This document shows, in pieces, positions 3,328 through 37,039 of a DNA stretch of 59,895 nt. The stretch is taken from the IMG/VR virus record IMGVR_UViG_3300044799_000410, positions 1-59,895 of that record, one strand, 5' to 3'. A program made the translations under genes and the position numbers. The notes under the pieces were generated by a model, which was not told where the DNA came from, searched no databases, and saw only the letters and a list, made by a program, of their open reading frames with translations. The stretch comes from a virus (Duplodnaviria; Caudoviricetes). Every line of letters starts with the position of its first letter. Position 1 is the stretch's first letter.

Positions 3328-4125
3328 ATGAAGATTACCAACGAAGGCATAAAGAGATTTATGCAGGCAGTCCGTGCCGAAATAGAATGCCACCGGAGGA
3401 CGGTCAATTTGTGGTTCCTGGCCAGTTTGATCGCCCTGATCGCGGTTTTGCTGATTGGCTCACTGCAATTGCGCGTTGCCAGTTTGCGGTTCCAGCCAGT
3501 TCCGGTCGTGGATTACCAAGCAACAATGAACCGGGAAGGCGTGTTAACTGCCGCCCCACAGATAGCAGAGACACTGCGAGCGGAATATAAAACCTCTACA
3601 CCCACATCAACACTTAGTCCTACCATCACGCCAACTCTGGTATCCACTGCCCCCGTCTCTGATGGATATTTCTGGCATGGCAAGTATTGGATCCCTGGTG
3701 TGATGTCCTACAAAACTTTGCGTTTATCAATGCCGGATTTAACAATTGGGATAGCGGTTTCTTATGCTCCCGGTGTGATGGAGGAAGTTGCACGTAACAC
3801 AGGCCGCCTCTACGACGGATATGCGGGGGCTGTGGCTTTGGAGTTATGCGCCGATGTTGAAGATTCGGTCTGGCTTCGACGTCCTGGGCATGATTGGGAA
3901 GGGCCGTTTCTGGTGATTGACTGCGCCAGACCCGAAGATCTATACGGCAATATAGTCTACGATGGAATTGTAGTAGAAGTAGACTACAATACAGCAGTCC
4001 GATGGGATTCTCTTATCACTCTCGGGATAGTGGTGTCCAAATTGCCACCGGGACAGATTGCTGGAGAACCAAGAGATTTCAGGCTGTGGTTCTTGCAGCA
4101 CGTGGAGTTTGAGGAGCAGCCATGA
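3328..4125 (+). CDS. Membrane-anchored protein with Thr/Pro linker and possible DPBB (RlpA/3D-like) domain
   Basis: Hydrophobic helix at about aa 28-48; TPTSTLSPTITPT linker; GPFLVIDCA and VEVDY motifs; directly upstream of the endolysin. Confidence 0.5.
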   Translation: MKITNEGIKRFMQAVRAEIECHRRTVNLWFLASLIALIAVLLIGSLQLRVASLRFQPVPVVDYQATMNREGVLTAAPQIAETLRAEYKTSTPTSTLSPTITPTLVSTAPVSDGYFWHGKYWIPGVMSYKTLRLSMPDLTIGIAVSYAPGVMEEVARNTGRLYDGYAGAVALELCADVEDSVWLRRPGHDWEGPFLVIDCARPEDLYGNIVYDGIVVEVDYNTAVRWDSLITLGIVVSKLPPGQIAGEPRDFRLWFLQHVEFEEQP

Positions 4126-5087
4126 ATTACATGCTAGACACATCTCTCTATGATTGTCGTCGGTATGTGTGGCCGACTGGTTATATCTATGATCTTCCCA
4201 TTAACTGGAAAGCTGGGGAAGCCATTGGCCTAACCTGTGCTATGATAAAGGCTGGGGAAGCGCTGCATGAGGATCCTGCCTTTCGGATGAATTGGAAAGG
4301 CGCGCAGGGACGGCCCAGGGAGGCGTACTGGTTCTTCCGCCAAAATGTCAATGCCATTGTTCAGGCGCAAAAATTTCTGTCCATCATCTTGGATGACTGG
4401 ACTGAAAGCGACTTGGCAACCGCAGATTGGGAAACAACGGATGGGATAGATCTCCCCAGTTGTCTCAGAAATGGCGGGTCATTTCTGTACGAAGTCGAGA
4501 AAATCCTGGGCAAACCTCCCGCAATCTGCACCTTCCCTGCCTACTGGAAAGCGATGGGCGGAGAAACTGCAACCAGTTTCAAGCATTACCCATTGCACGT
4601 ATCACAGTGGCCACTCGACAACTGGATCGCAAACCTCAAATTACCACCCTATTCTTTTAATAAACAAAGACTCGCCGACTTCAAAGCACGCATCGAGTCA
4701 GGCAATCTGAAACCGATGAATCTTCTTCCGTGGGGGAACGATATAACCGTCTGGCAATTCACCGCCAGAGCGTGGACGAAAGACATACCTGGTCATCCGG
4801 CAATCAAACTTGTCGCTGACATGAATGTGATACTCAAACCATGGTGGACTGGTATCGTTCCCCCACCTATTATTCCTCCTGTGATTCCCTCAAAGACATA
4901 TTTTGTCAACATTGGCGCGGCGAATGTACGCGCTGGGCCGAGTTCTGCAAACGTCATTCTGGGAACTATCGCAAAAAATACGAGGGTGATGGTGGATATA
5001 ACTACAGGCGAATACTCTCACTTCCTCCCTCAGCCACCGTACCTCGTGGGCGCATGGATATACAGTCGATTCCTGACACCAGTATAG
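4122..5087 (+). CDS. Endolysin, GH25 muramidase with C-terminal SH3b domain
   Basis: LDTSLY, IKAGE, AYWFF, ADWE, WQFT, DMN GH25 motifs; ANVRAGPS SH3b motif after a Pro-rich linker. Confidence 0.85.
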   Translation: MNYMLDTSLYDCRRYVWPTGYIYDLPINWKAGEAIGLTCAMIKAGEALHEDPAFRMNWKGAQGRPREAYWFFRQNVNAIVQAQKFLSIILDDWTESDLATADWETTDGIDLPSCLRNGGSFLYEVEKILGKPPAICTFPAYWKAMGGETATSFKHYPLHVSQWPLDNWIANLKLPPYSFNKQRLADFKARIESGNLKPMNLLPWGNDITVWQFTARAWTKDIPGHPAIKLVADMNVILKPWWTGIVPPPIIPPVIPSKTYFVNIGAANVRAGPSSANVILGTIAKNTRVMVDITTGEYSHFLPQPPYLVGAWIYSRFLTPV

Positions 5088-5096
5088 GAGCACATT

Positions 5097-5324
5097 ATGA
5101 CAACCCAATTATCAAGAATTGAAGGTTTACTAACAGAGAATCTCACGAAGATCGAGGCCAGAGTCACTGCTGTCGAAATAGACAATGGCAAGTTGGGGGT
5201 GACTGTTGCGTCGAACTGCGTTGAGATAATGGCTCTTAGGAAGGCTAACGTTGTATGGTCCTCCGTAAACTCAGTCCTTATCATCATAGGTGGAATCATC
5301 ATGTTGGTTTTGAGAGGAAGCTAG
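5097..5324 (+). CDS. Small lysis-module protein (coiled coil plus C-terminal TM; holin-like)
   Basis: SD AGGAG; C-terminal hydrophobic helix; follows endolysin. Confidence 0.55.
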   Translation: MTTQLSRIEGLLTENLTKIEARVTAVEIDNGKLGVTVASNCVEIMALRKANVVWSSVNSVLIIIGGIIMLVLRGS

Positions 5325-5379
5325 TTTATCAACCGGCGCTAGCACAGACCGGATTTAGGATTTAGAAAAGGAGTGTAAG

Positions 5380-5727
5380 ATGTTAGACACATTTGTTGCC
5401 CTCACTATCCAGTTCGTCTCCCTGTTGGGAGTGGCTGCGCTAGTCGCGGTCCTCGTGAACACGCTGAAGGTCGTCGGTGTGATCAAGGATGGTACTGCTG
5501 CCTACTGGGCCTCGGGCCTCGGTTTGGCCGCATTCGTAACCGTGGCCGTATTGGGCATCTTCCGGCCAGATCTGTCGTTGGTCTTTCTGGATCAGGCTGC
5601 CCTTAAGATTGCTACCGTTCTGACGTTCATCCTGGGGTTCATTACGCAAATTGCCGCAGCCCCCTTGTTCCACAGAGCCTTGAGCGCTGGTAGCATTCCC
5701 GTCATCGGCAAAACATTCAGTTCTTGA
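5380..5727 (+). CDS. Holin-like membrane protein
   Basis: SD AAGGAG; three hydrophobic helices; end of lysis module. Confidence 0.7.
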   Translation: MLDTFVALTIQFVSLLGVAALVAVLVNTLKVVGVIKDGTAAYWASGLGLAAFVTVAVLGIFRPDLSLVFLDQAALKIATVLTFILGFITQIAAAPLFHRALSAGSIPVIGKTFSS

Positions 5728-5749
5728 AGTAACCAATCCAGAGTATAAT
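5721..5749 (+). promoter_or_regulatory. Putative sigma70-type promoter pointing at the origin region
   Basis: TTCTTG-17 bp-TATAAT. Confidence 0.4.
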
Positions 5750-5788
5750 TGGCTTCTCCTCAGTTTGACCCTGGCTGGTCCCCAGGCC

Positions 5789-5821
5789 AAAGGTCCCTCA
5801 TTCCAGATGAGGGACCTTTTT
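5789..5821 (+). terminator. Rho-independent terminator ending the late/lysis transcript
   Basis: 13-bp stem AAAGGTCCCTCAT/ATGAGGGACCTTT ending in a T run. Confidence 0.85.
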
Positions 5822-5833
5822 GATCTTCGAGTC

Positions 5834-6105
5834 TATTCTTTATCATCATATTAAATGATATGTATATATAGTAGTCGTAGTAGGGCCTGTGGATAAGTGG
5901 AAAACTTTTTTGCGCCCACGAAAATTCCCAATATCTGGCTTCTCCTTTCTTTTGTCCCCCTTCTATGGCGGGGGTTTGGTTAGAAGTTCTCCACAGGCGA
6001 ACTGTGGAGGAAATTCTAATAACCTGTGTAAAGTATTGAAAAATGATATTTAATGATATTTCATTGATATATGTGTGGTAAACGTGTGGTGAACTATGTG
6101 GTAAA
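5834..6105 (-). other. oriC-like replication origin (AT-rich DUE, DnaA-trios, GC cluster, DnaA-box cluster)
   Basis: Minus strand has TTTTCCACT overlapping TTATCCACA by 1 nt, then GGCCC TAC TAC GAC TAC TA and an AT-rich tract; perfect box 5888-5896; weaker boxes at 5987, 6003, 6025, 6074, 6085, 6097. Confidence 0.8.
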
Positions 6106-6113
6106 ATTGTTAT

Positions 6114-6557
6114 ATGGACGAAACATCGATTGAGGCTCTTGTTTTTAAACGAGTAATAGGATTATTGCAAGAGTTGGGACCCGTAATTATGTCTCATCTC
6201 CAAACTATAGGCGTTCTTGGAGAGCTTTTAGTTTATCAACATCTTCTTAAAATAAAGAACGATTCTATTCATATTCAATATCCAACACAAGATTCAAGTT
6301 ATGACATTCTTTTTGGTGACGAAAGAATTGAAGTAAAAACAGCCTTACAAAACGATAATGAAAGTTATTGCATAATTATTAGAAAAAACAAAGATAAGTT
6401 TGATCATCCTTTGTTTGACAGGCTTATTGTTGTACTTTTGGAATCTCCAATGGCTAAACCCGTTTTTATAGAAATAGATCAAGATAGTGCTTTGAATCAC
6501 ACTGGGTTTAATTCTGATTTGGAGGGATTCAAGAAGAGGTTCAAGGTTCTGGACTAA
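6114..6557 (+). CDS. PD-(D/E)XK family nuclease-like protein
   Basis: GVLGE...SYDI...IEVK motif; AT-rich; extended -10 TGGTAAAAT 6 nt before ATG (leaderless). Confidence 0.65.
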   Translation: MDETSIEALVFKRVIGLLQELGPVIMSHLQTIGVLGELLVYQHLLKIKNDSIHIQYPTQDSSYDILFGDERIEVKTALQNDNESYCIIIRKNKDKFDHPLFDRLIVVLLESPMAKPVFIEIDQDSALNHTGFNSDLEGFKKRFKVLD

Positions 6558-6946
6558 TTTTTTCCCCTTCTTTCCGGTGAAATTTCTGCCGTTCTTTTCT
6601 GAAAGGCGTTCAATGATTGTCCTTGGGGATCTGGAAGTGATTCGAAGGCCTCCTTATATCTCTGCCAGCCAGTTTCGGTGATAAACCAGGGATTGAGCCA
6701 ATCCACGCAACGTATTTTATGATCCTTCGCCATTTGGTAGGCTATTTCTGGAGGCCAATCATAGGGCGGACCTCCAAAAACCGTCATGATACAAGGTGGC
6801 AATTTGTCTGAGAATTGTTCCAGCAACAGTCTCTTCTTGGTCGGGAGACTGGCCACCAATTGCCGCATCTCATACGCCCAGGCATACCAATTCCCTCGAA
6901 TGCGTTCCAGTTCTGCCTTGTCATGAATTATTCTGAGTCGAGGCAT
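6554..6946 (-). CDS. Hypothetical protein
   Basis: 130-aa ORF at the end of the leftward operon. Confidence 0.6.
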   Translation of the reverse strand: MPRLRIIHDKAELERIRGNWYAWAYEMRQLVASLPTKKRLLLEQFSDKLPPCIMTVFGGPPYDWPPEIAYQMAKDHKIRCVDWLNPWFITETGWQRYKEAFESLPDPQGQSLNAFQKRTAEISPERRGKN

Positions 6947-7397
6947 TTTTGATCCCAGTTATTTGTTTCGCCGCCAATTTTCCCATCCGGTTATAAGAGA
7001 GAGATTTAACCGGTTTGGTAATCTCGTGTGCCGCCAAAAATGCGACCACTTCATCCATCTGTCTTGGATCAAAATGCACCTGACGCCGTGATTGTGGCAC
7101 CTTCTGATGACAGGTCGGACAAATAGGAGAGAATCCTAAACGGATCCTGGTTGATCTTCTGGCTGGTTCGTAATTTTGATCAATAATTTTTTTCGCCAAT
7201 CCGGGAGATGGCGAACCATCCGGTCCAATAATCTTGGTTCTTTTGGCCACATCTTGCCATTTCAGTTTTAGGTCATAACGTAAATGCTGCCCTTCCGCAG
7301 CCCTTTTTGCAACTTCGGTTGATTGGAGTATGACCATAAAATTAGGTATTTTCGCAATTTTGGCGTTTTCAGGTAGTACGGGTCGCAATAATGACAT
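6921..7397 (-). CDS. Hypothetical DNA-binding protein (possible HTH plus CxxC)
   Basis: LKWQDVAKRT...PGLAKKII segment and CPTC. Confidence 0.5.
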   Translation of the reverse strand: MSLLRPVLPENAKIAKIPNFMVILQSTEVAKRAAEGQHLRYDLKLKWQDVAKRTKIIGPDGSPSPGLAKKIIDQNYEPARRSTRIRLGFSPICPTCHQKVPQSRRQVHFDPRQMDEVVAFLAAHEITKPVKSLSYNRMGKLAAKQITGIKNASTQNNS

Positions 7398-9693: not shown

Positions 9694-11121
9694 TTATTCT
9701 TCCATTCCTGGTAGAACGGTTTGTCCCTTGGCGATCTGTTCCGCTTCCCAGACGGCCTTGAGTTCCCGGACGGCCATAGGATCAGGAGTATAACTTCCTC
9801 CCGTATCTTTTACGGGCTTGAGCCAATCAAGCATGGCGAGAATCTGAGGTCCGGTCATCTTCTTCGAGCTATCTACACCCCACAGGAACATTAAACAGGA
9901 ACGGCGAATCTTGGCGGCATCCGGATCCGGTGCAAAAGTATACTCCATCATGGACACCATAAGACCGACTTGACCAGGATTCGCTTCGCCTTTTTTATTG
10001 GATGCCTTTCGGACCAACATGGAACGGAGGGTTAACGGGATAAGTGGACGTTCAATTTGGGTGCCTTCCGTTGGAGGTGGTGGTGGCTCCACTAGACCTG
10101 CCGGCTGCTTGGGGAGTTCTCCTGGGCCTGCTGATTGCTGGGGCGGCTCCCCAACCGGAATAGGAGTAGGAGTTTTGTCCCGGACCTGCACGTCATAAAC
10201 ACCTGTGGTCTCTGGAGGAGCAAATCTACCTTCGTCCTCATGTTCACCTTCCAGTTCATCTTGATCAGGATTGAAGACTCCTTCAACCGTGGCTGGTAGC
10301 ATTGCCCTTGAGAGAAATTCGCCGGTGAGAGCATTCTTCGACATGCGTGCGAAGGCGTGTTTTACCCAATCAGGATCTGCCTTGATGTTAATCAGCCATT
10401 GTTTGACCCGTGAGGCTGTCCCATCTTCATGATTCCAGGTAATCTCCTTTTGTGAGCGATAGATTACGAAAGGAACGCCGCCAGCATTGCCACCATTGAT
10501 GAGATCGGCAATTGTCTGGATGCCGGCCAACTGGAGTTTGATATTCTGGCAGTCATACCAGGAGGTTGTTTTCAGGATGAACTGAACAAGTTCTCCAGCA
10601 TTGACCATATCCTCCAAAACGAGACGGAGTCGCCCACTGCACCTTACGGTCAACTCAAAATGTTTATTGCCTCGCTCGTATTTTATGATCTCTTTCGGCA
10701 GGAATTTTTTGAATGGCTGTCCATCTTTCACCAGGAATTTATTGCCATCGAGTGGGTCTTTCAGATAAATGTAATGGTCATCGTCGGCCAATCCCAAACG
10801 CCGGCCGGATTGGTAAATTTCATTCCCGTAATCCCAGGCCGCCCAAACGGATGTGGCCGGAACTACGGCACGTAATTCAAGTACCTCATAACCGTCCCTG
10901 ACCAGGTACTTTTCAGGATAGTTGACAAGTTGTTTGGCATGGGTTACGTGGAATGCGGCTTTGACAGTATCCGTTCCAGGAAGGAAATGTACCCTCATCT
11001 TCTGGCCGAGATCCTTCCCCATTACTTCGATCTCCTTATCTCCCTTCATGATTCTGTATTTCGGGGTCCCTTTCCGAATGTTAGCCACTTCCGGGAAGGC
11101 CATATCTTGTTTGCGAGACAT
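9694..11121 (-). CDS. Putative recombination protein (Gp3-like recombination directionality factor family)
   Basis: N-terminal IRKG; GRLRLVL...KTTSW..., GVPF; acidic Pro-rich linker; SD AAGGAG. Confidence 0.5.
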   Translation of the reverse strand: MSRKQDMAFPEVANIRKGTPKYRIMKGDKEIEVMGKDLGQKMRVHFLPGTDTVKAAFHVTHAKQLVNYPEKYLVRDGYEVLELRAVVPATSVWAAWDYGNEIYQSGRRLGLADDDHYIYLKDPLDGNKFLVKDGQPFKKFLPKEIIKYERGNKHFELTVRCSGRLRLVLEDMVNAGELVQFILKTTSWYDCQNIKLQLAGIQTIADLINGGNAGGVPFVIYRSQKEITWNHEDGTASRVKQWLINIKADPDWVKHAFARMSKNALTGEFLSRAMLPATVEGVFNPDQDELEGEHEDEGRFAPPETTGVYDVQVRDKTPTPIPVGEPPQQSAGPGELPKQPAGLVEPPPPPTEGTQIERPLIPLTLRSMLVRKASNKKGEANPGQVGLMVSMMEYTFAPDPDAAKIRRSCLMFLWGVDSSKKMTGPQILAMLDWLKPVKDTGGSYTPDPMAVRELKAVWEAEQIAKGQTVLPGMEE

Positions 11122-11122
11122 A

Positions 11123-11458
11123 TTATTCTCCTTCTGCTTTTTTAATCCTGGCTCCAAATGATTTGAGCAATTCAGTCACAGTGAGTCCGGTGCGCTTTTC
11201 ATCGGGGTGCAGCCAGGGGAGTGCATCCCGAAGTGCGTCTAAAGCAAGTTGATATTGGTGATCATTATTCCAGATGTACCATTCGACAAATTTTCGCGAG
11301 ATGAAACCGGGACCGGTATTTTTGCATTCAATGCAGTAGACGTTCACGATCTGCGGATTTTCCTTATCTTCCTGCCTGTAATTCAATTCTCCCCAGCAAG
11401 CAGCACAAAGGTAATCCCGTTTCATGTCATGCGCAGACCAATAGCTCATTATAGTCAT
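11123..11458 (-). CDS. Zn-finger hypothetical protein
   Basis: CAAC and CIEC pairs. Confidence 0.6.
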   Translation of the reverse strand: MTIMSYWSAHDMKRDYLCAACWGELNYRQEDKENPQIVNVYCIECKNTGPGFISRKFVEWYIWNNDHQYQLALDALRDALPWLHPDEKRTGLTVTELLKSFGARIKKAEGE

Positions 11459-11797: not shown

Positions 11798-12898
11798 TCA
11801 AAAGAGGGTCGTCTGGATATTAGGAGATAACCACATACATTCTATGGTCGGCTTTGCATGTCCTGCTCGACTGCTCCTCGAGACAAAGCGCCAATCCTTA
11901 TATAACATCAAATAGAGATCTGATGAATAACCGCTGATGATGGCCATCCCCATAATATTATGCAGGGCATCGGCCAGCCTCACATGATCTTCTTCTGTTA
12001 TCTCATTCCGGTATTTGACACTCGAAGAACTGCGCGTTTTGATCAGGTAGGGAGGATCTGCATAGAATAATGTTGTGGATTTGTCAAAGTCACGGATGAG
12101 ATCGATGGCAGGTCTTTGTTCAATCGTCACTCCCTGCATTCGTTTTGAAAAGGCAGCAATATTTTCCGAGAAGTTCATCCAATCATTTGCGCCGGTGACT
12201 CCACTCTGGCTATTGCGCCTTATTCGGAAACCGGCGTGGGCTCTGGTGATCCCGTCGGATCCATGGCTGGCGAATGATCGGAAAATGATTCGTCTGGAGT
12301 TCTCTATCGGGTCCGGGCTGACTTCATAGGCCAAATCAAATTCTTTCCTGGAATAAGGTGTCAGAGCCAATAGTCTGGCTAATTCTGCGGCCTGCTGTGG
12401 GTCCCGCAGAACACGAAATACATCGCAAATCTCACCGTCAATATCATTATAAACCTCACCTTGTGAACGTGGTTTTGCCATGAGAACACTGCCGGCACCA
12501 CCATAAAGGTCTACGAAAAGCTGGTGAGCCGGAAAATGGGAAACAACCCAACGGCGGATGGCAAACTTTCCACCGGGGTAACGCATTATCGGACGCTTGA
12601 TCTTGGAAGTCTCTCCGTTTTTAGAACGGCATAATTTCTTCTTGAGCTGATTCTCATTTTCTTGGAATCGTTCAGTAATAATACGTTTTCCTATTTTGAT
12701 GCAATGACGACATTCCAGATATTCACTGATGATGTCATTGCCGCACCATTGGAAAACTGCCTGGGAAGATATTCTGGCCCCGCACATAGATCGTCCATCC
12801 ATGTGAAGATGCACAGGACCGCCTCGTTTTTCACCTGGAACGCCATAATAACCCGTGAAAATCTTGTTCCACTTTGCTATCTTGAATTGTGTTGTCAT
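11798..12898 (-). CDS. D12-class (Dam-like) N6-adenine DNA methyltransferase with N-terminal Cys/His domain
   Basis: RYPGGK, DLYGGAGSV, YNDID, FYADPPY motifs; likely start MTTQF at 12898 with SD GGAG. Confidence 0.9.
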   Translation of the reverse strand: MTTQFKIAKWNKIFTGYYGVPGEKRGGPVHLHMDGRSMCGARISSQAVFQWCGNDIISEYLECRHCIKIGKRIITERFQENENQLKKKLCRSKNGETSKIKRPIMRYPGGKFAIRRWVVSHFPAHQLFVDLYGGAGSVLMAKPRSQGEVYNDIDGEICDVFRVLRDPQQAAELARLLALTPYSRKEFDLAYEVSPDPIENSRRIIFRSFASHGSDGITRAHAGFRIRRNSQSGVTGANDWMNFSENIAAFSKRMQGVTIEQRPAIDLIRDFDKSTTLFYADPPYLIKTRSSSSVKYRNEITEEDHVRLADALHNIMGMAIISGYSSDLYLMLYKDWRFVSRSSRAGHAKPTIECMWLSPNIQTTLF

Positions 12899-12911
12899 CT
12901 GATTGCTCCGA

Positions 12912-13775
12912 TCAAAACATCTGTTCCTGTATAAGATCATCTGGGACGTTCTCCTCTTTGATGGCTGTTCGCATATCGCTGCGCTTCCTTCCTTTGACCA
13001 TTGCCCCACAGCCGGCACTGGTCAGCAGAGTGCGTTTCAGCATATCCGCGTCGCCAAAATTACCCTTTTCCAACATCTGGACAAATACGTCGAGTACGGG
13101 TAGGCCCTCAGGTGTAAGCATGTTGATTATACCGGGGACGTTTTCAAAGATTATTGTCCTGGGTTGAATTTCCAGCACGAGTCGGGCAAACTCGAATACC
13201 AGACTATTACGGGGATCCATCACATTGCGTTTACCAGCCATACTGAAACCCTGGCAGGGCGGTGAACCCATCACCACGTCAATCTCACCGACCTTCTTTC
13301 CGACTTCTTCCAGGATGCGTTTCCCGGTCAACTTGCGCACGTCGCCGACGATAAAAACGCCTACACCAGGCATGTCGGGATGACCCCGAATCCAGCCGCC
13401 CCCGGTGGTAAAGGCATGGCTGATCGTTTTCTTCTTGTCGTCTACCTTCATCTGTTTGCGCAGTTCCTTCTCCATTCTGGCTTTATCATCTGGCTCCAGA
13501 AATACAAAACGCATTGGGTAGGCACCGAGATTATGAGTATATGTGATTGCGGCAATTACATCATTATCCACGCCTGCCAGGATTTGAATCCCAGATTGCA
13601 TAGATCCCAAACTAAATCCGCCACAACCCGCAAATAGATCAATGCCTACCGGCCTGGGTTTGGGGATGGCGCTTTTGGGAATCAATATGCCATCTTTTAT
13701 TACCCAGTCAGAGGATGAAAATGTACCTTTAGTTTCTTGCTCCACTGGCAAGCGCAGGATAGGAGATATTAGCAT
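12912..13775 (-). CDS. C5-cytosine DNA methyltransferase, N-terminal half only
   Basis: Motif I DLFAGCGG, motif IV GSPPCQGFS, motif VI FENVPG; motifs VIII, IX, X and TRD not seen. Confidence 0.8.
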   Translation of the reverse strand: MLISPILRLPVEQETKGTFSSSDWVIKDGILIPKSAIPKPRPVGIDLFAGCGGFSLGSMQSGIQILAGVDNDVIAAITYTHNLGAYPMRFVFLEPDDKARMEKELRKQMKVDDKKKTISHAFTTGGGWIRGHPDMPGVGVFIVGDVRKLTGKRILEEVGKKVGEIDVVMGSPPCQGFSMAGKRNVMDPRNSLVFEFARLVLEIQPRTIIFENVPGIINMLTPEGLPVLDVFVQMLEKGNFGDADMLKRTLLTSAGCGAMVKGRKRSDMRTAIKEENVPDDLIQEQMF

Positions 13776-14874: not shown

Positions 14875-16623
14875 CTATCCAAACAAATTATCATTGGCCT
14901 TGACTCGTGAGGGGGCTGTGACTACCACCAATTTTCGCGCCGATAATCGTTGCAGGTAGGTATCCCGGCTGGAACGTGCATATCCTGTTTCATTGCTGAT
15001 ATTTTCCCGCTCGACCTCCTTCGGATATTCATTGCAAATCACCTGTAGGATCTTCGCCTCCCCGCCATGCAACTTGTTCAGCCAATATTCCCGGAGTTCA
15101 TCACCGGTCGGAAGTTGCTGAAAGTTCGGACCAAGAGCCTCGGTGCCGGCAACAGTGATATAAACCGGTCCCCCGAATGGAGTAAAGGTAACGAAACCTT
15201 TTGTCACCAGCCTCTGTAGATAGGTATCCCTACTGGACCGTTTGTAGCCGGTAAGGATTGTCAACTGTTCACGGGTGACGCCCTCTGGATATTGGGCGCA
15301 CGCCGTTAGGATCTTCACTTCGCCGACCGGCAACCTCCCATTCGCGGCATATTTCCAGTCATCTGTATCGGGTCGGACTGCATTCTCTCTCCTGATTGGA
15401 TCAGCCGGCAATCTGATCTGAATGTTTTGGGTGGGAGGAAGGGGTCTGGTCACTTTCCTGGCTTGGGAAATTTGTTCTAATAAAACTCGCGAGGCGGCTA
15501 TCCACTCTGTGCCTTTTTCTCCCATTGTGGCCAACAAAGCACGTGTGGTTGTCACCAATTCTGTACCTTTTTCTCCCATTACGGTGGCCACACTTTCCAG
15601 TCTATCCAGATCCGCTTGCTGAAATACGGGGATCTCGACCAATCTCTCCTCGACCTGTGGAACGGTAACGGTCGGGCGAATAGACAATTCTTTTTTTAGG
15701 ACGCCAATTTGTTTCCTCAATTCGGCCTCGTTCATGGCCTTCTGTTCGGCTTCCTTGGGGAGATCTGATAATTTGGGTAGTAGAGATCTGATCTTTTCTG
15801 GAGACGGCGGAGGTGTCAAGGCAGATTTTGTGTCTCCAGGTTCGGGATGAGTAGTCGTGATCGCTCCCACTTTTACCAAGATGCGTTCTTTGCTGATCGC
15901 ACGTCCGAGTGCGAAGAAGTTGCCTGGTTCAATCACTTTCACTTCATTATAGAATAATTTTGCCTCTGGTCCTGAAATGCCTAATGCGTCGGCTGCCCGT
16001 TTCAAGTCAATGTCAATGAATGTCTGGCCGATCAAAACATTAGTCAGTTCGGCCGCGGCATCCTTACGCAACTTACCAAGACGCTGGGTGGCAAGGATAG
16101 CGCAGAATCCACGTTTTCGCCCTCGTGTGCATAATGCAATAATGGACTCGCTGGATTCTGACTCTCCCGATCCTTTCTCCGGCGCGAAGGCATGTGCCTC
16201 ATCGACAATCACCAATAGGGGATGCCAAAGTTCTTTCGGGGAATCGATCAATGCTTCCAAGAATAGGCGAACCCAGCGGTGCCTCTCGGCACTTTTCATC
16301 TCATAAAGATCACAGACGGCTGAGGTATTCAACTCCAGCAGCCGATGAGCCAACATCTGTGCTGAACGCGTGTCGGCTGGCGTGTCACCGCCTTTTCCGA
16401 CCAGAATAAAATCGAATCTCTCCCGCAGCGTGGCAAATTCGCCTTCTGGGTCAATAATAATGGTCTGGATAGCGCCGGCAGCCTGCTCGACAATGCGCCG
16501 GATGGTGTAACTTTTTCCACCGCCCGAATTCGCCTGTATGAGTAGTCTGGTCTTGAGCAAGGTATCCAAGTCGATATAAATATCCGATGATCTGTTACTT
16601 TTCCCAAGATTTATTTTGGTCAT
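14875..16623 (-). CDS. HerA/DUF87-like P-loop ATPase with two C-terminal winged-helix repeats
   Basis: ANSGGGKS Walker A, IIDPEGE, VDEAH Walker B, RGRKRG, ATQR; duplicated GE.KIL...TGY.RSSRDTYLQRL. Confidence 0.85.
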   Translation of the reverse strand: MTKINLGKSNRSSDIYIDLDTLLKTRLLIQANSGGGKSYTIRRIVEQAAGAIQTIIIDPEGEFATLRERFDFILVGKGGDTPADTRSAQMLAHRLLELNTSAVCDLYEMKSAERHRWVRLFLEALIDSPKELWHPLLVIVDEAHAFAPEKGSGESESSESIIALCTRGRKRGFCAILATQRLGKLRKDAAAELTNVLIGQTFIDIDLKRAADALGISGPEAKLFYNEVKVIEPGNFFALGRAISKERILVKVGAITTTHPEPGDTKSALTPPPSPEKIRSLLPKLSDLPKEAEQKAMNEAELRKQIGVLKKELSIRPTVTVPQVEERLVEIPVFQQADLDRLESVATVMGEKGTELVTTTRALLATMGEKGTEWIAASRVLLEQISQARKVTRPLPPTQNIQIRLPADPIRRENAVRPDTDDWKYAANGRLPVGEVKILTACAQYPEGVTREQLTILTGYKRSSRDTYLQRLVTKGFVTFTPFGGPVYITVAGTEALGPNFQQLPTGDELREYWLNKLHGGEAKILQVICNEYPKEVERENISNETGYARSSRDTYLQRLSARKLVVVTAPSRVKANDNLFG

Positions 16624-16636
16624 TGCTCTATCCCTC

Positions 16637-17089
16637 TCAATTGATTTCGTCCATGCCGCTGGCCTGGACCTCATCTTTGAGTTTAACTTCCCATGTCTCA
16701 CCGCATGAACAGGTGATGGTGACCGTCCCCGTTATTTGGTACATGTGCTTCATGTAGCGCATTGACGTGATCGGATTCCCGTTCCGGTCAGTGTTCTTAT
16801 AATAATCTTCGGTTTCCCAGGAGCATTCCACGCTCAATTCATATTCCTCCCGATCTTCCTGTTTCTCATCTGATTCATGAGCGGCCAGATGTTCGACTGC
16901 CTCAGGGGAAGTTTCCTCGAGGAAATTGAAGGTGGTTTCTTTCATCTCGCCGGAGCATTCTGCGCAGACCAGGACCAGCCGGACTTCGGCCTCCACCAAT
17001 CCCTCATTGCTGACGCTGAGAGACTGTTCCTCGGGCTCCTGGACTTCCAGGCCAACGAATTTATTGCAATTAGGACATCGGTTACTCAT
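16637..17089 (-). CDS. Acidic Zn-binding hypothetical protein
   Basis: CPNC, CAEC and CSC motifs. Confidence 0.65.
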   Translation of the reverse strand: MSNRCPNCNKFVGLEVQEPEEQSLSVSNEGLVEAEVRLVLVCAECSGEMKETTFNFLEETSPEAVEHLAAHESDEKQEDREEYELSVECSWETEDYYKNTDRNGNPITSMRYMKHMYQITGTVTITCSCGETWEVKLKDEVQASGMDEIN

Positions 17090-17264
17090 TTTTATTTTCC
17101 CGTGTTATTAGATTGTGTCTTTCTAGGTATTCAATAAGTGCCTCCCGTTGTAACGCGGCAGCAGTCACCTTTACAAAACGATTGCTTTGGCGCTCCGCTT
17201 CTTTCTTGAATATCTCAAGAATTTCTTCTGGAACTTTGATGTTTATCAAACCCTTCATCGCCAT
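17082..17264 (-). CDS. Ribbon-helix-helix (Arc/CopG-like) transcriptional regulator
   Basis: INIKVPEEI...AAALQREALIEYL pattern; SD AGGAG; own promoter. Confidence 0.65.
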   Translation of the reverse strand: MAMKGLINIKVPEEILEIFKKEAERQSNRFVKVTAAALQREALIEYLERHNLITRENKNE

Positions 17265-17283
17265 ATCGTCTCCTATACTATGC

Positions 17284-17320
17284 TTGACGGCAGTATAGTA
17301 TGTCGCTATAATTTTGTCAA
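17284..17320. promoter_or_regulatory. Two fully overlapping divergent sigma70 promoters
   Basis: Plus: TTGACG(17284)-17 bp-TATAAT(17307); minus: TTGACA(17320)-17 bp-TATACT(17297). Confidence 0.85.
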
Positions 17321-22717: not shown

Positions 22718-23302
22718 ATGGATATGAAAAAATGTTCTAAATGTGGTAATGTTTTGCCATTGACCTCCTTTTATAAAGCCAAAGAAATGAAGTCAGGTTA
22801 TCGTAGTAATTGCAAAAAATGTGATCTTGTCTACAACAGGACAAGACCAGTTCGTATTAAAACAGAACCTCAGCGACTTCGGAAAAATAAATATATGAGA
22901 TTGCATCTTGCCGAAAAGCGAGCTAATGATTCCAATTATCTTGAAAATAAAAGGGCGCGTGATCGGCAATATAGAATGACAGATAAAGGAAAGGCTTCTA
23001 GTATTCGTTCTAAAGCTAATCGAAGAAAGCATATAGGGCATCATATTCTTTCTGGTGGGGATTGGAACATTATTCTTAGAATCTTTGGCAATATGTGCGT
23101 ATATTGTGGAAGTGGCGAAGAAATTACTGCCGACCATTTCATTCCCATTTCTAAAGGCGGTCAAACCACATTGGATAATATTGTTCCGGCTTGTCATTCG
23201 TGTAATTCTAGTAAACAAGATAAAAATCCAAAAGAATGGTGTGATAATTATGACAGCATTTCCGGGTTACTTGATACCATGCGCAGCCCGGCTAAAAGCT
23301 AA
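22718..23302 (+). CDS. HNH homing endonuclease, antisense to the surrounding operon
   Basis: CSKC/CKKC N-terminus; CVYCG..DHFIPISKGG...NIVPACHSCNSSK; TATAAT 6 nt before ATG; AT-rich. Confidence 0.9.
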   Translation: MDMKKCSKCGNVLPLTSFYKAKEMKSGYRSNCKKCDLVYNRTRPVRIKTEPQRLRKNKYMRLHLAEKRANDSNYLENKRARDRQYRMTDKGKASSIRSKANRRKHIGHHILSGGDWNIILRIFGNMCVYCGSGEEITADHFIPISKGGQTTLDNIVPACHSCNSSKQDKNPKEWCDNYDSISGLLDTMRSPAKS

Positions 23303-24318
23303 TTTTGCTGGGCAATCAATGCTTCGCGGCATATCCCATCGGTCAGGTAGACGTATGATTTCCCCGCGCCGACGAGTATCCATGTTTTGTCCGTTGGCTT
23401 GTCTATTGCTTCCTCCAGATATTTTGGATTGAGAATTACATCAACGTCTGCCCCGGAGTGATAATAACCAGAGATAATCTTGCCGGTGGACATGGTTTCA
23501 TCATCACTATATTGTGATACTTCAAAGGCATATTCAATGTTGCCATTGAAAGACAGATGCAGGGAGGATTTCATCTTCTTTGCACGGTTACAGACCTTCA
23601 AGAGATCACGTAAAGCAGCCGCGCTGAGGTGGACGATTGTATTCTGTGCCCGCCGTGCTGAGGCGAGCAGGGTTTCAACCTGCTCCCGCCGCGGATACTC
23701 GCGCTGTTCCAAATCACGCCGGTAATGAATACGGTAGCCATCGGTGGCGATATTTCCTCCGACTTTCCCGAAGTCAGGCCGCACTGGGTCTTTGGATACG
23801 GCGCGCTGTAGCCAGGGATCAGGAATATATCGCGGCTCGACTGGTTCGGCCTGCCAGGCGGCGACTGTCTGTACATGAGCCACGCGTGGCACATGAGCCG
23901 CGCGCGCCACATCTTCAACCGGTTTGGCGCGTAGGAAGGCTTTCCAGGAGTCATGCGTGGTACAGGATGTGCCAGGTGCAGATTCCCACAGATAATATCC
24001 GGTGCAGATGATTGCTCTGCCCATGATCGCGCTGTTGGAATTATTCTGATATAGGGTATTCTTGCTGGGGGTGAGAATGAAAGAGGATTCCCCGCCATGA
24101 GCCGCGCGCGGCACCCGCAGACGAAGCAGGTCGATGAAAGTAGCCGCATGGACGGCAGAAATCCCGCCGTCGAAGCTGATACGGTCGGCCGGCTTTTCCT
24201 TGTCCGCCTTGAGCGCTTTATTGAGTGTCCCAATGGCGGCCAACATGGAGAGAGGTAGAAACTCAATTGCGCCTCCCTCACGCGGTCGGTATCCGGTGCT
24301 AAATGGAATGATGGTCAT
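23299..24318 (-). CDS. Protein with DNA polymerase III beta-clamp-like C-terminal domains
   Basis: ATDGYRIH and ILNPKYLEEA motifs typical of clamp domains; SD AAGGAAGG. Confidence 0.55.
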   Translation of the reverse strand: MTIIPFSTGYRPREGGAIEFLPLSMLAAIGTLNKALKADKEKPADRISFDGGISAVHAATFIDLLRLRVPRAAHGGESSFILTPSKNTLYQNNSNSAIMGRAIICTGYYLWESAPGTSCTTHDSWKAFLRAKPVEDVARAAHVPRVAHVQTVAAWQAEPVEPRYIPDPWLQRAVSKDPVRPDFGKVGGNIATDGYRIHYRRDLEQREYPRREQVETLLASARRAQNTIVHLSAAALRDLLKVCNRAKKMKSSLHLSFNGNIEYAFEVSQYSDDETMSTGKIISGYYHSGADVDVILNPKYLEEAIDKPTDKTWILVGAGKSYVYLTDGICREALIAQQN

Positions 24319-24459
24319 ACTATTCCTTCCTTTCTTGGAATTTTGAATCCCGAAGGACATCGGGACGATGAAACGGGGGATATATCGGTCTCTGCCGATT
24401 GTCACGCCTGGGGCAAAGGGGCGGCGTTCCTGGCCTTCAATTGTCGCGCTAGACAAGCG

Positions 24460-24768
24460 TCAAGCGTCTTTTACTTCGATACCGGGGAATGCCAGCTCGA
24501 ACGATACGGCGTCCACATCGTCGAGCTTTTCGTACAGTTCGATGGCCTCATCGCGGGAGAGGGATATAAGGGTATCGCGTTCCCCTTGCCATTGAGTCAA
24601 ATTGACCTCGAAGTATGCGCCGCCAGGCGTGCGATAGAGAAACGTATTACGCCCGGATCGCTCGAAGTTGTGACCGTCCCAGTACGCATTATCTGCGATT
24701 AGGGTAGCGGTTTTGACGGAGTAACGCTTCCTGTCGATGATTCTGACAAAATCTGATGGTGCTTTCAT
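24460..24768 (-). CDS. Hypothetical phage protein
   Basis: RIIDRKRYSVKTATLIA...LYRTPGGAYF motif; SD GAAAGG. Confidence 0.75.
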   Translation of the reverse strand: MKAPSDFVRIIDRKRYSVKTATLIADNAYWDGHNFERSGRNTFLYRTPGGAYFEVNLTQWQGERDTLISLSRDEAIELYEKLDDVDAVSFELAFPGIEVKDA

Positions 24769-24892
24769 GATGATAGTACCTTTCTGCTGGACTATGCCAA
24801 CGGCGAGAAGGCCCGGACTATGCCGGGGGGTGGAACTTGTGCCGCCCATTCTGCCCCCGTGCCACACAAGGGCACGGGGGCAGGCGGGGAAG

Positions 24893-25177
24893 TCAAATAT
24901 TGAGCCACCAGGGAACGTCATTATATCCCTCGTAAAGGTTGACCGGGTCCTCCAGGGGATCGCCCGGTTGCTTATCCTGTGGGACCTCCGGTAATTCTTC
25001 CCGTGAGCCGCGCGCGGCACCTGTCAGAATGGGAAGGGGCGCAACGGGTACACCTTGAGAGACTGCCAGCCTACGGCGGCGTTCTACTTTTGCCGCGTAG
25101 CGACTGCTCCCGGTCGGTATGCCGTCCGGGTTCTTGCCTTGCTTCTGTTCACGTGTGGGGCGTGGTTTCCGTGGCAT
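24893..25177 (-). CDS. Hypothetical basic protein
   Basis: SD GAAGGT; directly after upstream stop. Confidence 0.5.
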   Translation of the reverse strand: MPRKPRPTREQKQGKNPDGIPTGSSRYAAKVERRRRLAVSQGVPVAPLPILTGAARGSREELPEVPQDKQPGDPLEDPVNLYEGYNDVPWWLNI

Positions 25178-25180
25178 TGG

Positions 25181-25888
25181 TTACCTTCCTTCTACAAGGC
25201 GATTGTAAACGGCGCAGGCTTCAATATACTCTTGCGCAGCCTGCTCCGCGGCCGCCTCGGACTCGTCATCGTTCTTTGACTTTTCCAGGGCGTAGACTTC
25301 GGACTCGACATAGGGCAGGATTGCACCAAGTTTTTCCAGCAATTCCGGCGCGGCGGCGATCAGGCGGGCATTTGCGGCGAGTTCTTCAAGGGTAGGTTCG
25401 TTTTCCTCATCATACATCCCCGTCACGACGTTGCAGGGTTCGCCATTGCGTTGCGCTGTAATGTGAGTATCGCCGAATAAATCGTCAACATCCCACGGGC
25501 CGGGGGTGTGGGTGGGGACTTTCGAGGTATACACACACTTGACCGGCTGCCCGTCGATCACGTCCAGGGGATTCGCATCACAGCGAATCCAATACGCCCC
25601 GCTGCGTGAGGCGCGCGCGCCACCTTGTTCTAGCAGGGCGTAGACGCGACCGGGGAGACCAGTCAAACTCCGGGTGTGCATTTCGTCGGCTGTGTCCCTG
25701 TAGTGCTTTGCGCTGATGCGTGCCTGCTCGATTTCATCGGCGGTCGCATAGTGTGCCGCCGCGAGCTCATACCCGCCAACGACTCCCATCGATTCATCCC
25801 CATTGAAGTACGCCAACATTGCCATTGTGAGATTATTCAGGGCGGTGTTCTTGTCTGTGGCTTGTTCGTCGAATTCGGTTTGTGTCAT
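25181..25888 (-). CDS. Hypothetical protein with C-terminal HTPGPW...ANARLIAAAP domain
   Basis: Clear paralogue of 18951-19274. Confidence 0.8.
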   Translation of the reverse strand: MTQTEFDEQATDKNTALNNLTMAMLAYFNGDESMGVVGGYELAAAHYATADEIEQARISAKHYRDTADEMHTRSLTGLPGRVYALLEQGGARASRSGAYWIRCDANPLDVIDGQPVKCVYTSKVPTHTPGPWDVDDLFGDTHITAQRNGEPCNVVTGMYDEENEPTLEELAANARLIAAAPELLEKLGAILPYVESEVYALEKSKNDDESEAAAEQAAQEYIEACAVYNRLVEGR

Positions 25889-30696: not shown

Positions 30697-30720
30697 GTCT
30701 GGAGTAAGTCTGACTTTCCC

Positions 30721-30748
30721 TTGACAGGTGGGCAATTTCGGGTATACT
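30721..30748 (+). promoter_or_regulatory. Near-consensus sigma70 promoter (leaderless)
   Basis: TTGACA-16 bp-TATACT, ATG 6 nt downstream. Confidence 0.8.
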
Positions 30749-30754
30749 GAAATC

Positions 30755-34535: not shown

Positions 34536-34555
34536 TATAGAATAGAGAAAACACC

Positions 34556-37011: not shown

Positions 37012-37039
37012 CCATACAGTGAGATATAGTCATTATATC

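Follow-up and report, generated by a model that had tools for sequence, protein, structure and literature searches.

A candidate chromosome-type replication origin, built like the DnaA-trio module of bacterial oriC, in a tailed phage without a detected initiator gene

By the usual account a bacteriophage supplies the protein that binds its origin, and the DnaA boxes found in phage and plasmid origins act as helpers. At P1 oriR, pSC101, F, RK2 and lambda pR, such boxes stand beside an initiator that belongs to the element itself, and host DnaA is thereby recruited to the control region of a mobile element. Outside the chromosomal origin, datA and other clusters of DnaA boxes titrate DnaA. Replication from a cloned chromosomal origin by host DnaA only is a property of laboratory constructs (the oriC minichromosomes or oriC plasmids).

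The basal unwinding system (BUS) of bacterial origins was defined in Bacillus subtilis and is predicted in 85% of 2070 species, by a search rule that requires three or more NAN triplets in a row (‘DnaA-trios’) within 16 bp of a DnaA box; the spacer between box and trios averages 4 bp, a second tandem box with up to four mismatches is present in 57% of the predicted systems, and three trios are the reported minimum for origin activity in B. subtilis (PMC8287927). Two reports place comparable elements in phages. The injection-stop region of T5-like phages contains a DnaA-box cluster ‘reminiscent of oriC’, with the boxes in pairs 3 bp apart within inverted repeats of the terminal repeat; the accessible text of that report mentions neither trios nor an unwinding tract, and its author contends that the cluster has no part in replication, the origins of T5 having been mapped to other sites (10.1101/866236). 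For the 499-kb megaphage G, an ‘OriC’ with boxes, a spacer, a DnaA-trio and an A+T-rich region was predicted by Ori-Finder, a permissive tool, in sequence of 52-58% A+T and, in the accessible text, with no comparison to real origins (PMC12484599). In the titles and abstracts of the literature on DnaA boxes or trios in phages, no trio-bearing phage origin lacking an initiator was found.

The DNA analysed here (‘the window’, 59,895 nucleotides) is a virus record with direct terminal repeats, and its 127-bp terminal overlap closes it into a complete, circular phage genome of about 59.8 kb. The phage is tailed, and its sample source is peat. In the left, early part of the genome no gap is longer than a non-coding stretch of 386 bp (5728-6113), and we put at about even the chance that this gap is a chromosome-type replication origin of the phage, which the DnaA of its presumed host would bind, unwind and fire. 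With the oriC minichromosomes it would share an oriC-type origin as the sole cis element and the lack of an initiator of its own, but the phage occurs in nature, measures 60 kb, travels in a tailed virion and has its own clamp and a gp3-like protein, and its autonomous replication is presumed. The elements of the P1 oriR, pSC101, F and RK2 type have iterons and an initiator of the Rep or O type, and no trio array has been described in them, whereas no initiator was detected in the phage. The datA-type clusters, which likewise lie outside a chromosomal origin, are not described with trios and an unwinding element, and the phage element has one strong box. T5-like phages share with it a phage-borne DnaA-box cluster (10.1101/866236), and megaphage G the computational report of boxes, spacer, DnaA-trio and A+T region in a phage genome (PMC12484599). 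The features of the locus, and the phage genes discussed below, are collected in Table 1.

Table 1. Features of the element and phage genes discussed in the text, by position in the window
Feature	Position	Strand	Remarks
GH25 endolysin	4122-5087		Within the + strand tail-fibre/endolysin block
Intrinsic-terminator hairpin, 13-14 bp stem, then TTTTT	5789-5819	+	Left boundary of element; closes the + strand tail-fibre/endolysin block
A+T-rich tract, candidate DNA unwinding element	5834-5868		86% A+T vs 52% in the genome
Five DnaA-trio-like triplets TAG TAG TCG TAG TAG (TAGTAGTCGTAGTAG)	5869-5883	+	Read from sequence
GGCC spacer (GC cluster), box to first trio, 4 bp	5884-5887		
Perfect DnaA box TTATCCACA (+ strand TGTGGATAA)	5888-5896	-	Sole perfect box in the genome
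Weak second box TTTTCCACT (+ strand AGTGGAAAA), 2 mismatches	5896-5904	-	Same orientation as the perfect box, 1-base overlap with it
Convergent degenerate boxes TTCTCCACA (5987-5995, 1 mismatch) and TGTGGAGGA (6003-6011, 2 mismatches)	5987-6011		
A+T-rich direct repeats AATGATATTT(C), 2.7 copies	6042-6070	+	
Three degenerate boxes TTTACCACA, TTCACCACA, TTTACCACA	6072-6105	-	11-12-bp spacing; orientation as core boxes
147-aa ORF adjoining the element	6114-6557	+	Weak PD-(D/E)XK (DUF4420) match, E 1.5e-5, 24.8 bits, cut-off 27
phiC31-gp3-like protein (PF18897 family), extra C-terminal helical domain	9694-11157	-	
HerA/FtsK-superfamily ATPase, helicase-like	14875-16701	-	NF040819 helicase_HerA, 4.8e-10
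Divergent beta sliding clamp (DnaN-like), putative	23299-24456	-	Profile and fold similarity
Endonuclease VII gene	31256-31858		

The preliminary description had placed an A+T-rich tract, triplets, a GC cluster and overlapping boxes in 5834-5904, and a reading of the sequence finds every one of them at its position. Ranked by nearest-neighbour free energy, the least stable duplexes of 30 bp and 40 bp anywhere in the genome are found here (5841-5870 and 5834-5873, respectively). Four of the five triplets are the commonest trio, TAG, the third from the box has a central C, and the triplet outward of the array is ATA. The perfect box is the trio-proximal member of its pair. The overlapping pair TGTGGATAAGTGGAAAAC occurs in identical form in two bacterial loci (L044 and L049, the latter with dnaA about 680 bp away) and is a natural arrangement.

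The element is more than a chance assembly of short words. Across the genome, boxes with up to one mismatch are not enriched (16 against 15.4 expected), and TTATCCACA itself occurs exactly once. The composite TAGTAGSSSSTGTGGATAA, with up to three mismatches allowed, was found once against 0.04 expected and was matched in 4 of 100 shuffles; all three TGTGGWWAA words of the genome lie inside 5888-6105, on one strand; and the seven boxes with up to two mismatches within 230 bp are the maximum of any 230-bp stretch, the genome mean being 3.3 per kb.

A 20-mer spanning trios, spacer and box (GTAGTAGGGCCTGTGGATAA) is present in the genomes of 57 bacterial species. In 44 of these the 8-kb locus around it contains dnaA and/or dnaN (DnaA in 40, DnaN in 41), and among the flanking ORFs of six loci that were checked by Pfam, nine of ten are DnaA or DnaN. 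The register of the trios and their orientation relative to the box are those of the 57 loci; real chromosomal origins share both the order of the parts, which the earlier description had noted, and their relative orientation. The closest cores are those of Chloroflexota-type origins, some of them from the same kind of peat samples.

Set against the published description of the BUS, the phage element shares the box pair, a GC spacer of about 4 bp, TAG (3'-GAT-5') trios and an A+T tract, in the same order and orientation; it differs in being phage-borne and not beside dnaA or dnaN, in its TCG third trio, in having its strong box next to the trios and in its degenerate flanking cluster. The search rule tolerates two mismatches to TTATCCACA in the main box, which here has none, four in a tandem second box, where TTTTCCACT has two, and 0-16 bp between box and first trio, where GGCC takes up four; the A+T-rich region lies beyond the trios, as the rule expects. 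The trio array is the exception. TCG splits it into two runs of two, and a script applying the published rule, (.A.){3,}, does not accept it because the third trio is TCG; the earlier claim of a DnaA-trio array stands for four TAG trios, their register and their orientation, and falls short of the published definition at that triplet. Under the same rule 55 of the 57 bacterial loci pass, 52 of them with a box-proximal run of at least three. A pyrimidine-centred third trio is nonetheless found in five of the 57 (L003, L023, L034, L035 and L044), all titled Chloroflexota MAGs, and the interruption is also present in contigs L002, L144 and L172. The five bacterial loci are themselves putative origins, since none has dnaA or dnaN within the locus.

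The phage element is single-copy, as an oriC is in its replicon, but it is no chromosomal oriC in the sense of a locus: it lies in a circular phage, near neither dnaA nor a canonical dnaN, and does not sit at a skew minimum. Nor does it resemble an origin of the iteron type, with a Rep or O-type initiator of its own and repeats to bind it, no initiator family having been found in about 100 ORFs. Among the intergenic regions examined, repeats in arrays of about three copies or more occur in the gap 5728-6113 and are absent from those at 17090-17313, 28433-28611, 30697-31255, 34360-34800 and 36773-37018. No credible Rfam match was found in 5000-7000.

Nucleotide skew offers the origin reading no help. 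Transcription of the flanking genes converges on the element from either side, and AT skew mostly tracks the coding strand. Cumulative GC skew, which had been suggested as a check on an origin at this place, has a local maximum at the element (6-7 kb) instead of a minimum, and its minima lie at about 17.3 kb (raw) and 29.2 kb (detrended).

Beyond the core, the preliminary description had listed six further near-consensus boxes. Five are present, at 5987 (one mismatch) and at 6003, 6074, 6085 and 6097 (two each); the one at 6025 (TGTGTAAAG) has three mismatches and drops out. The boxes at 5987 and 6003 together make up a perfect inverted repeat of 8 bp around a 5-nt spacer; L047, L018 and L002 have convergent pairs of similar appearance downstream of their cores. 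The direct repeats that follow overlap a duplex (6033-6072) that ranks third in the genome for instability, and a related copy of AATGATATTT lies within the unwinding tract (5845-5861); we found no known binder for these AATGATAT repeats (2.7 copies). The three-box array at 6072-6105 aligns to an 11-bp-period array in L042. Further boxes with up to one mismatch number just one within 250 nt of the phage core, against two to nine in ten of the eleven other viral loci described below.

DnaA boxes regulate transcription at dnaA promoters and at lambda pR, and the boxes at 5987-6105 might likewise control the 147-aa ORF or a leftward transcript. The array of 11-bp-spaced boxes stops 9 nt short of the ATG of that ORF, and promoter-like hexamers on the minus strand overlap the array; the promoter scan, however, is not enriched (4 sites against 2.7 expected) and has no + strand site upstream of the ORF, and regulation of this kind would leave the trios, the spacer and the unwinding tract, 170-230 nt away, without explanation. 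As the purpose of the element such regulation is very unlikely, although it is compatible with an origin, since real origins also regulate neighbouring genes. The promoter region of the 147-aa ORF would overlap the DnaA-box array.

The same boxes could make the element a sink or a sensor, which would bind host DnaA without being an origin and either deprive the host origin of it by datA-like titration or couple a phage decision to the level of DnaA-ATP. A perfect box with six degenerate ones in 230 bp would suit that purpose, an interrupted trio array might bind DnaA yet unwind poorly, the GC skew does not point to an origin at the element, and T5-like phages keep eight DnaA boxes in a region thought to be unrelated to replication (10.1101/866236). 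A sink, however, needs boxes only, and not a phased GC spacer, trios and the genome's least stable duplex alongside them; a single strong box makes a weak titrator; and the trio plus A+T arrangement has been kept in other viral loci. We regard a sink or sensor as unlikely, while returning to it below.

The genes of the phage bear on the proposed origin more directly. The preliminary description had stated that the genome encodes no recognisable initiator, helicase, primase or polymerase. Searches of about 100 ORFs against Pfam, PHROGs and NCBIfam indeed detect no initiator, DnaB-type helicase, primase or polymerase, and no six-frame match to the DnaA ATPase domain or DnaB_C was obtained; the phage thus probably borrows the initiator protein of its host. 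A novel initiator could be hidden among the about 40 ORFs to which no function can be assigned, and phmmer searches of three unknown early proteins (ORFs 27051-27833, 25181-25888 and 24460-25020) against the PDB returned nothing useful. As a statement that replication genes are lacking, however, that account is just partly right, because it missed a clamp, a phiC31-gp3-like protein and a HerA-family ATPase.

The clamp went undetected by Pfam alone. A profile built from 34 sequences has 55 PDB matches, all of them beta clamps (best E 4.4e-10, C-terminal domain only), and the predicted structure (pLDDT 76) has beta clamps as all of its top Foldseek matches (E about 2e-9, probability 1.0, TM 0.33-0.40). 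An exhaustive search gave 41 relatives of this ORF, where an earlier homologue search had returned only the ORF itself; other gene callers give it later starts (a 241-aa form and a form from residue 33). By profile and modelled fold the product is a putative member of the beta sliding clamp family, and a clamp homologue makes sense only with a Pol III-type replisome.

The gp3-like ORF scores against PF18897 below the Pfam cut-off (E 0.0033, 17.7 bits against 23.6), reaches 0.95-0.96 to PF18897 clusters in the ESM Atlas, and has the phiC31 RDF chain 9teh_I as its top PDB match in Foldseek (E 4.7e-7, target TM 0.53); PF18897 is carried by 8 of the 50 homologues listed for it, and its sequence profile has no match in the PDB. 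A member of this family, the founders of which act as excision factors, could point to an attP site, in which the 30-60 nt that the phage shares with host origins would serve as the crossover for integration next to the host origin; phages commonly have attP behind their lysis genes, and origin cores are matched exactly over a short length. Such a role is extremely improbable, given that no tyrosine or serine recombinase is found in the approximately 100 ORFs, that the record is circular and not integrated, that the host origin would be put at risk by an insertion into its unwinding module, and that the gp3 family also has a role outside recombination, TG1 gp25 binding ssDNA (PMC11795197). By analogy with TG1 gp25, a close relative of gp3 (PMC11795197, PMC3836970), the phage protein is a putative ssDNA-binding protein. 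Neither an integrase nor a partition protein was found in the searches against Pfam, PHROGs and NCBIfam.

If the gap is the origin of the phage, the following course of events may be proposed. Host DnaA-ATP would bind the perfect box and the weak box that overlaps it, and a DnaA filament would extend over GGCC onto the TAG triplets of the + strand and melt the adjoining 35-bp A+T tract, with the degenerate boxes at 5987-6105 helping to recruit or hold more DnaA. Host helicase, loader, primase and Pol III would then copy the phage. The clamp homologue and the gp3-like protein, with its putative ssDNA binding, would assist, and the HerA-like ATPase may do so as well; later, before packaging, replication could turn branched or recombination-dependent, as the presence of an endonuclease VII gene suggests. 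In the BUS, DnaA-ATP separates the strands and needs boxes and trios alike to do so. Replicons of the oriC type are bound to the once-per-cycle control of the host and compete with its chromosome, an awkward fit for a lytic burst. This control, the interrupted trios, the GC-skew maximum and the poor outer boxes all weaken the case for an origin fired by host DnaA.

No close relative of the phage turned up in the collections searched. A megablast of 25 kb against the INPHARED phages gave no match, and neither the 147-aa ORF nor the gp3-like ORF has a relative in IMG/VR. The endolysin has a single one (L155), which shares the endolysin alone and lacks the core. TerL has 411 relatives at up to 58% identity, of which 80 were kept; no credible copy of the core occurs in the 37 records searched (the longer contigs among those 80), which were scanned together with L001 and L002. 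The best large TerL relative, G005, shares TerL alone with the phage, and a core match in it with two mismatches, the sole new one of that scan, was rejected, lying in a G+C-rich setting that lacks both an A+T tract and additional boxes. A distant blastn search of the element returned a single 48-nt match to Microviridae (E 3e-3), which was taken as chance. Several peat runs contain the element assembled at its position, where contigs of 59,798 nt and 3,473 nt bridge it with no differences, and the phage contigs of those runs are identical to the phage genome save for a low-depth difference at 7667; this assembly lends weak independent support, because the runs may be the record's own source.

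Phages often carry foreign DNA after their lysis genes, and the element might be a passenger, a fragment of a host origin gained there by illegitimate recombination and without a role, at least as yet. Its location after the lysis cassette and the terminator of that cassette fits this reading, as does a 16-nt direct repeat (88% identical, 5745-5760 and 5931-5946) with the terminator, the A+T tract and the core between its two copies; further out, the boxes look decayed. A metagenome scan gave four contigs with the core (three of them near-identical), in which tblastn and tblastx found no dnaA, dnaN or phage genes, and the best match (L172, 87% over 61 nt) would be in keeping with a passenger. 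L172 resembles unlike-flanked short contigs of the same peat runs. Against a passenger, similarity to every sampled genome ends at 40-70 nt, and no flanking host gene or longer origin segment is shared. Among 401 Chloroflexota genomes sampled, 21 match, all at query positions 12-91 and with at most 64 bits, and blastn-short of the element against the 57 bacterial and two viral loci gives matches of 20-46 nt only. The core, moreover, is intact and its A+T tract extreme. A functionless fragment is distinctly unlikely, the more so as the module recurs independently in other phages (about nine lineages), a recurrence that argues for selection.

The composite TAGTAGSSSSTGTGGATAA matches 11 other IMG/VR contigs from about nine lineages, against three for a reversed control pattern, and at least two further boxes with up to one mismatch lie within 250 nt of it in 10 of the 11, against none of the three controls. 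These contigs range from 33 to 62% G+C, and CheckV puts four of them at 96-100% completeness. One trio of related contigs apart, they share no genes with each other and essentially none with the phage; tblastx against all core-bearing loci finds no shared genes except a weak methyltransferase match in L144. In one of the contigs TerL lies 1.5 kb from the core. Six-frame searches find DnaA and DnaB_C encoded in none of the 12 records (the 11 contigs and the phage), which suggests that the phenomenon is not unique to this genome.

In one of these phage contigs (L148), a stand-alone DnaA DNA-binding domain of 76 aa is encoded directly beside the core. It shows that phages do interfere with DnaA-box recognition, and to that extent it favours a sink for DnaA. 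For the origin reading, the recurrence opens a wider proposal, tentative and with somewhat less than an even chance of being right: that there is a scattered, recurrent class of tailed phages which have lost, or never possessed, an initiator and replicate as natural minichromosomes, using a copy of the unwinding module of their host lineage (including the Chloroflexota-type quirk at trio 3) that host DnaA would fire, and that some of them bias the competition with the chromosome by supplying a clamp, an ssDNA-binding protein or even a DnaA DNA-binding domain on its own.

If the origin reading is correct, a phage with the unwinding module of its host as its sole recognisable origin would represent a different solution to the initiation of phage replication. 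Its replication would be tied directly to the initiator and the cell-cycle state of the host, and it would compete directly with the chromosome for DnaA. The origin core would also become a marker of host range, here pointing to Chloroflexota-type peat hosts, for which, to our knowledge, almost no phage biology exists. Finally, such elements would provide natural, compact substrates for the DnaA-trio model, among them a trio array that is naturally interrupted.

An element in the style of a bacterial chromosomal origin, as proposed in the preliminary description, is confirmed in the window, and its anatomy is beyond chance. Every letter reported for the origin-like region is present (a further box at 6025, listed as near-consensus, has three mismatches and is not counted), and the features of the element and of the surrounding genome are collected in the table. 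The perfect DnaA box occurs once in the genome, the composite pattern is found once in the window against 0.04 expected, all three of the genome’s TGTGGWWAA words fall in the element region on the same strand, and the seven boxes (with two mismatches or fewer) packed into 230 bp are the genome’s maximum. At both 30 bp and 40 bp, the genome’s least stable duplex is the tract adjoining the trios; the A+T repeats at 6033-6072 come third.

Features of the origin-like element and of the phage genome
Feature	Position	Strand or remark
Tail-fibre-like protein	205-2070	
GH25 endolysin	4122-5087	
Strong terminator hairpin, end of tail/lysis block	5789-5819	
A+T tract, 86% A+T	5834-5868	
TAG TAG TCG TAG TAG triplets	5869-5883	read on plus strand
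GGCC	5884-5887	
Perfect DnaA box, TGTGGATAA on plus strand	5888-5896	minus
Weak box AGTGGAAAA, one base in common with perfect box	5896-5904	
Spacer, 82 nt	5905-5986	
Convergent box pair TTCTCCACA / TGTGGAGGA	5987-6011	
A+T-rich AATGATATTT repeats	6042-6070	
Three TGTGGTAAA-type boxes, spacing 11-12 bp	6072-6105	
ATG of small ORF	6114	
Small terminase	28982-29731	
Large terminase	38044-39471	
Portal	39479-40948	
DNA methyltransferases, at least four (D12 N6-adenine, C5-cytosine, two N6/N4 type)	11798-13018, 12912-13775, 33168-33935, 37019-38047	

A 20-mer covering two of the trios plus spacer and box was searched in one genome per bacterial species and was present in 57 species from many phyla (including Chloroflexota, Nocardiopsis, Clostridia, Lactobacillaceae, Binatia, Bdellovibrionota and others), in 44 of which the 8-kb locus also contains dnaA, dnaN or both (by local tblastn, using Pfam-confirmed DnaA and DnaN queries). 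The core is thus a true origin module of wide conservation, and in the phage it has the orientation of its bacterial counterparts. TGTGGATAAGTGGATAA occurs in about one third of these loci, and the phage’s exact pair TGTGGATAAGTGGAAAAC in two, L044 (titled Chloroflexia) and L049 (titled Caldilineaceae), with dnaA about 680 bp from the pair in the latter; the one-base overlap of the boxes, odd at first sight, is thus a natural arrangement. Look-alikes of the convergent box pair lie downstream of the core in bacterial loci L047 and L018 and in viral contig L002, and the window’s 11-bp-period box array aligns to one downstream of the core in L042. The module is single-copy in each of five tested genomes. 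Ten Chloroflexota-titled loci (L003, L013, L021, L023, L027, L029, L034, L035, L038 and L044) carry an origin-like core and many DnaA boxes with no dnaA or dnaN in the 8-kb locus, unlike the 44 of 57 loci that have one or both. At a distance of about 300 nt from the core, L023, L034, L044 and the metagenome contig L172 have a conserved block in common that includes three strong boxes.

The search rule described in PMC8287927 calls for at least three consecutive central-adenine triplets no more than 16 bp from a box, and the same source gives three trios as the minimum for B. subtilis origin activity. The phage array consists of two such triplets, TCG and two more (the next triplet outward being ATA), and the window does not pass a scripted version of the rule, which is passed by 55 of the 57 bacterial loci (52 with a box-proximal run of at least three); the element is therefore a variant of the module rather than a member under the published rule. 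The third trio is TTG or ACG in five bacterial loci (L003, L023, L034, L035 and L044), all titled as Chloroflexota MAGs, and CCG or CGG in viral contigs L002 and L144 and in L172, and this interruption of the array points to a Chloroflexota-type lineage. Neither dnaA nor dnaN was found in those five loci, so that the case for their being origins is drawn from their box clusters and single copy. Outside the core the phage boxes are weak, with one further box of at most one mismatch within 250 nt, versus two to nine in 10 of 11 other viral loci; genome-wide, such boxes show no enrichment (16 found against 15.4 expected).

Similar cores recur in other viral records. The pattern TAGTAGSSSSTGTGGATAA matched 11 other IMG/VR contigs, against three for its reversed control, and at least two further good boxes lay within 250 nt in 10 of the 11, against none of the three controls. 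Except for three related contigs of 95-162 kb, the 11 share no genes with one another, and essentially none with the window; the G+C content of core-bearing viral contigs runs from 33 to 62%, CheckV completeness is 96-100% for four records, two more have terminal repeats, and six-frame searches found DnaA and DnaB_C in none of the 12 records, the window included. That about ten lineages carry the module independently of one another is an argument for its selection in phages.

Several of these records have features of their own. In a 37-kb phage contig (L148, 100% complete by CheckV, with TerL and a Rha regulator within 1.5 kb of the core), a stand-alone 76-aa DnaA domain IV (L148:3119-3349, minus; PF08299, E 1.1e-16, above cut-off) begins directly after the phage’s own origin-like core at L148:3426-3444, and is possibly a DnaA-box competitor or helper. 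A family of large phage-like records (L143, L146 and L150; 95, 159 and 162 kb, one with terminal repeats) carries a textbook module, in which three TAG trios stand nearest the box within a run of six NAN triplets, followed by GGGC and a tandem perfect box pair, with nine further boxes within 250 nt in each; six-frame searches detected neither dnaA nor DnaB_C in them. Two phage records that are unrelated to each other both have a gene for a PD-(D/E)XK-type nuclease as the neighbour of the core on its box side (L001:2981-3661, minus, a firm match at E 3e-10, and window 6114-6557, a weak one), which may be coincidence.

The similarity of the element to every sampled genome stops after 20-70 nt. 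Among 401 Chloroflexota genomes sampled, 21 match, all inside the segment from A+T tract to box with scores of 64 bits or less, and a metagenome scan with a 27-mer matched four contigs; one of them, L172, is 87% identical to window 5845-5905 and has the three-strong-box block of L023, L034 and L044, which is absent from the phage. Short contigs of other organisms in peat-metagenome runs that also contain the phage (X1, X4 and X5) match only window 5868-5907 (with three to four differences) before diverging into flanks that resemble L172, so organisms with an almost identical core live alongside the phage; these contigs are candidate host-lineage origins. No protein gene common to the phage and any core-bearing locus was found. 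The data fit a module modelled on, or anciently taken from, the origin of the host lineage, and do not fit a long capture of recent date. A 16-nt direct repeat (88% identical, 5745-5760 and 5931-5946) flanks the terminator, A+T tract and core, and could be a recombination scar of module acquisition, or chance.

The window is a tailed phage, its 59,895 bases being the entire virus record, classed by IMG/VR as having direct terminal repeats. Its ends are identical over 127 bp (1-127 and 59769-59895, leaving about 59,768 unique bases), so the genome is circular or terminally redundant; with the overlap taken out, the frame left open at the 3' end (57019-59895) carries on through 2-214. It also encodes an HNH endonuclease, endonuclease VII and one tRNA-Met, and its methyltransferases, together with a PAPS-reductase-like protein, DUF932, DUF5131 and a weak anti-restriction match, amount to a heavy anti-restriction load. 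Six peat-metagenome runs hold contigs nearly identical to the window, and in two, which may be the record’s own source, one contig bridges the element with no differences; no close relative for testing the element’s conservation was found in the phage and virus collections searched.

The preliminary description held that the genome has no recognisable initiator, helicase, primase or polymerase. Pfam scans of about 100 ORFs, PHROGs scans of about 40 of those and NCBIfam scans of 54 early or unknown ones found no initiator, DnaB-type or SF3 helicase, loader, primase, polymerase, integrase or partition protein (some 40 ORFs have no assigned function), six-frame searches of the window found no DnaA ATPase domain or DnaB_C, and tblastn with four DnaA proteins gave no match. 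The statement was nevertheless too strong, because three replication-related proteins are present: clamp, gp3-like and HerA-family. ORF 23299-24456 (minus) is a divergent beta sliding clamp homologue: missed by Pfam and PHROGs, it had a weak first lead from the ESM Atlas, and an exhaustive HMMER search of a 1.84-billion-protein library gave 41 relatives of about 300 aa, whose profile matched 55 PDB sequences, all beta clamps (best E 4.4e-10). Its AlphaFold model (pLDDT 76) has only beta clamps as top Foldseek matches (E ~2e-9, probability 1.0, but TM only 0.33-0.40); gene callers place its start differently (241, 353 or 385 aa). ORF 9694-11157 (minus) belongs to the phiC31-gp3 family, with ESM Atlas scores of 0.95-0.96, homologues carrying PF18897, and the phiC31 RDF chain as top Foldseek match (E 4.7e-7). 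TG1 gp25, described as 60-62% identical to gp3 proteins (PMC3836970), is reported to bind ssDNA and is proposed as the phage SSB (PMC11795197). The ORF comprises a gp3-like core (residues ~20-290), a disordered linker and a C-terminal helical domain; 23-36% of its length is common to proteins with RecT (PF03837) or AAA_24 (PF13479), which suggests an interaction domain that recombination and replication proteins can exchange. ORF 14875-16701 encodes a helicase-like ATPase of the HerA family. Having a clamp but no polymerase implies use of host Pol III, and fits a phage that also borrows the host initiator.

The cumulative GC skew, suggested earlier as a check, did not place an origin at the element: a local maximum lies at 6-7 kb, and the minima at about 17.3 kb (raw) and 29.2 kb (detrended). 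Phage skew often tracks transcription, and in the window AT skew clearly goes with the coding strand, GC skew only in part; the skew is therefore counted as unsupportive, not refuting. Genes on either side of the element are transcribed toward it.

We give about an even chance to the element being a chromosome-type origin fired by host DnaA, a variant in that its trio array is interrupted, and with a Chloroflexota-type host as its probable model. Of the rival readings, a sink or sensor for DnaA comes next but is clearly less likely, a passenger fragment and promoter control are each unlikely, and an attP core is highly improbable. The literature searched gave no description of a phage origin of this sort, the nearest cases being the DnaA-box arrays of T5 (10.1101/866236) and an Ori-Finder prediction in phage G (PMC12484599), as those sources present them. 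The element lends itself to direct tests, and appears to recur in phages.
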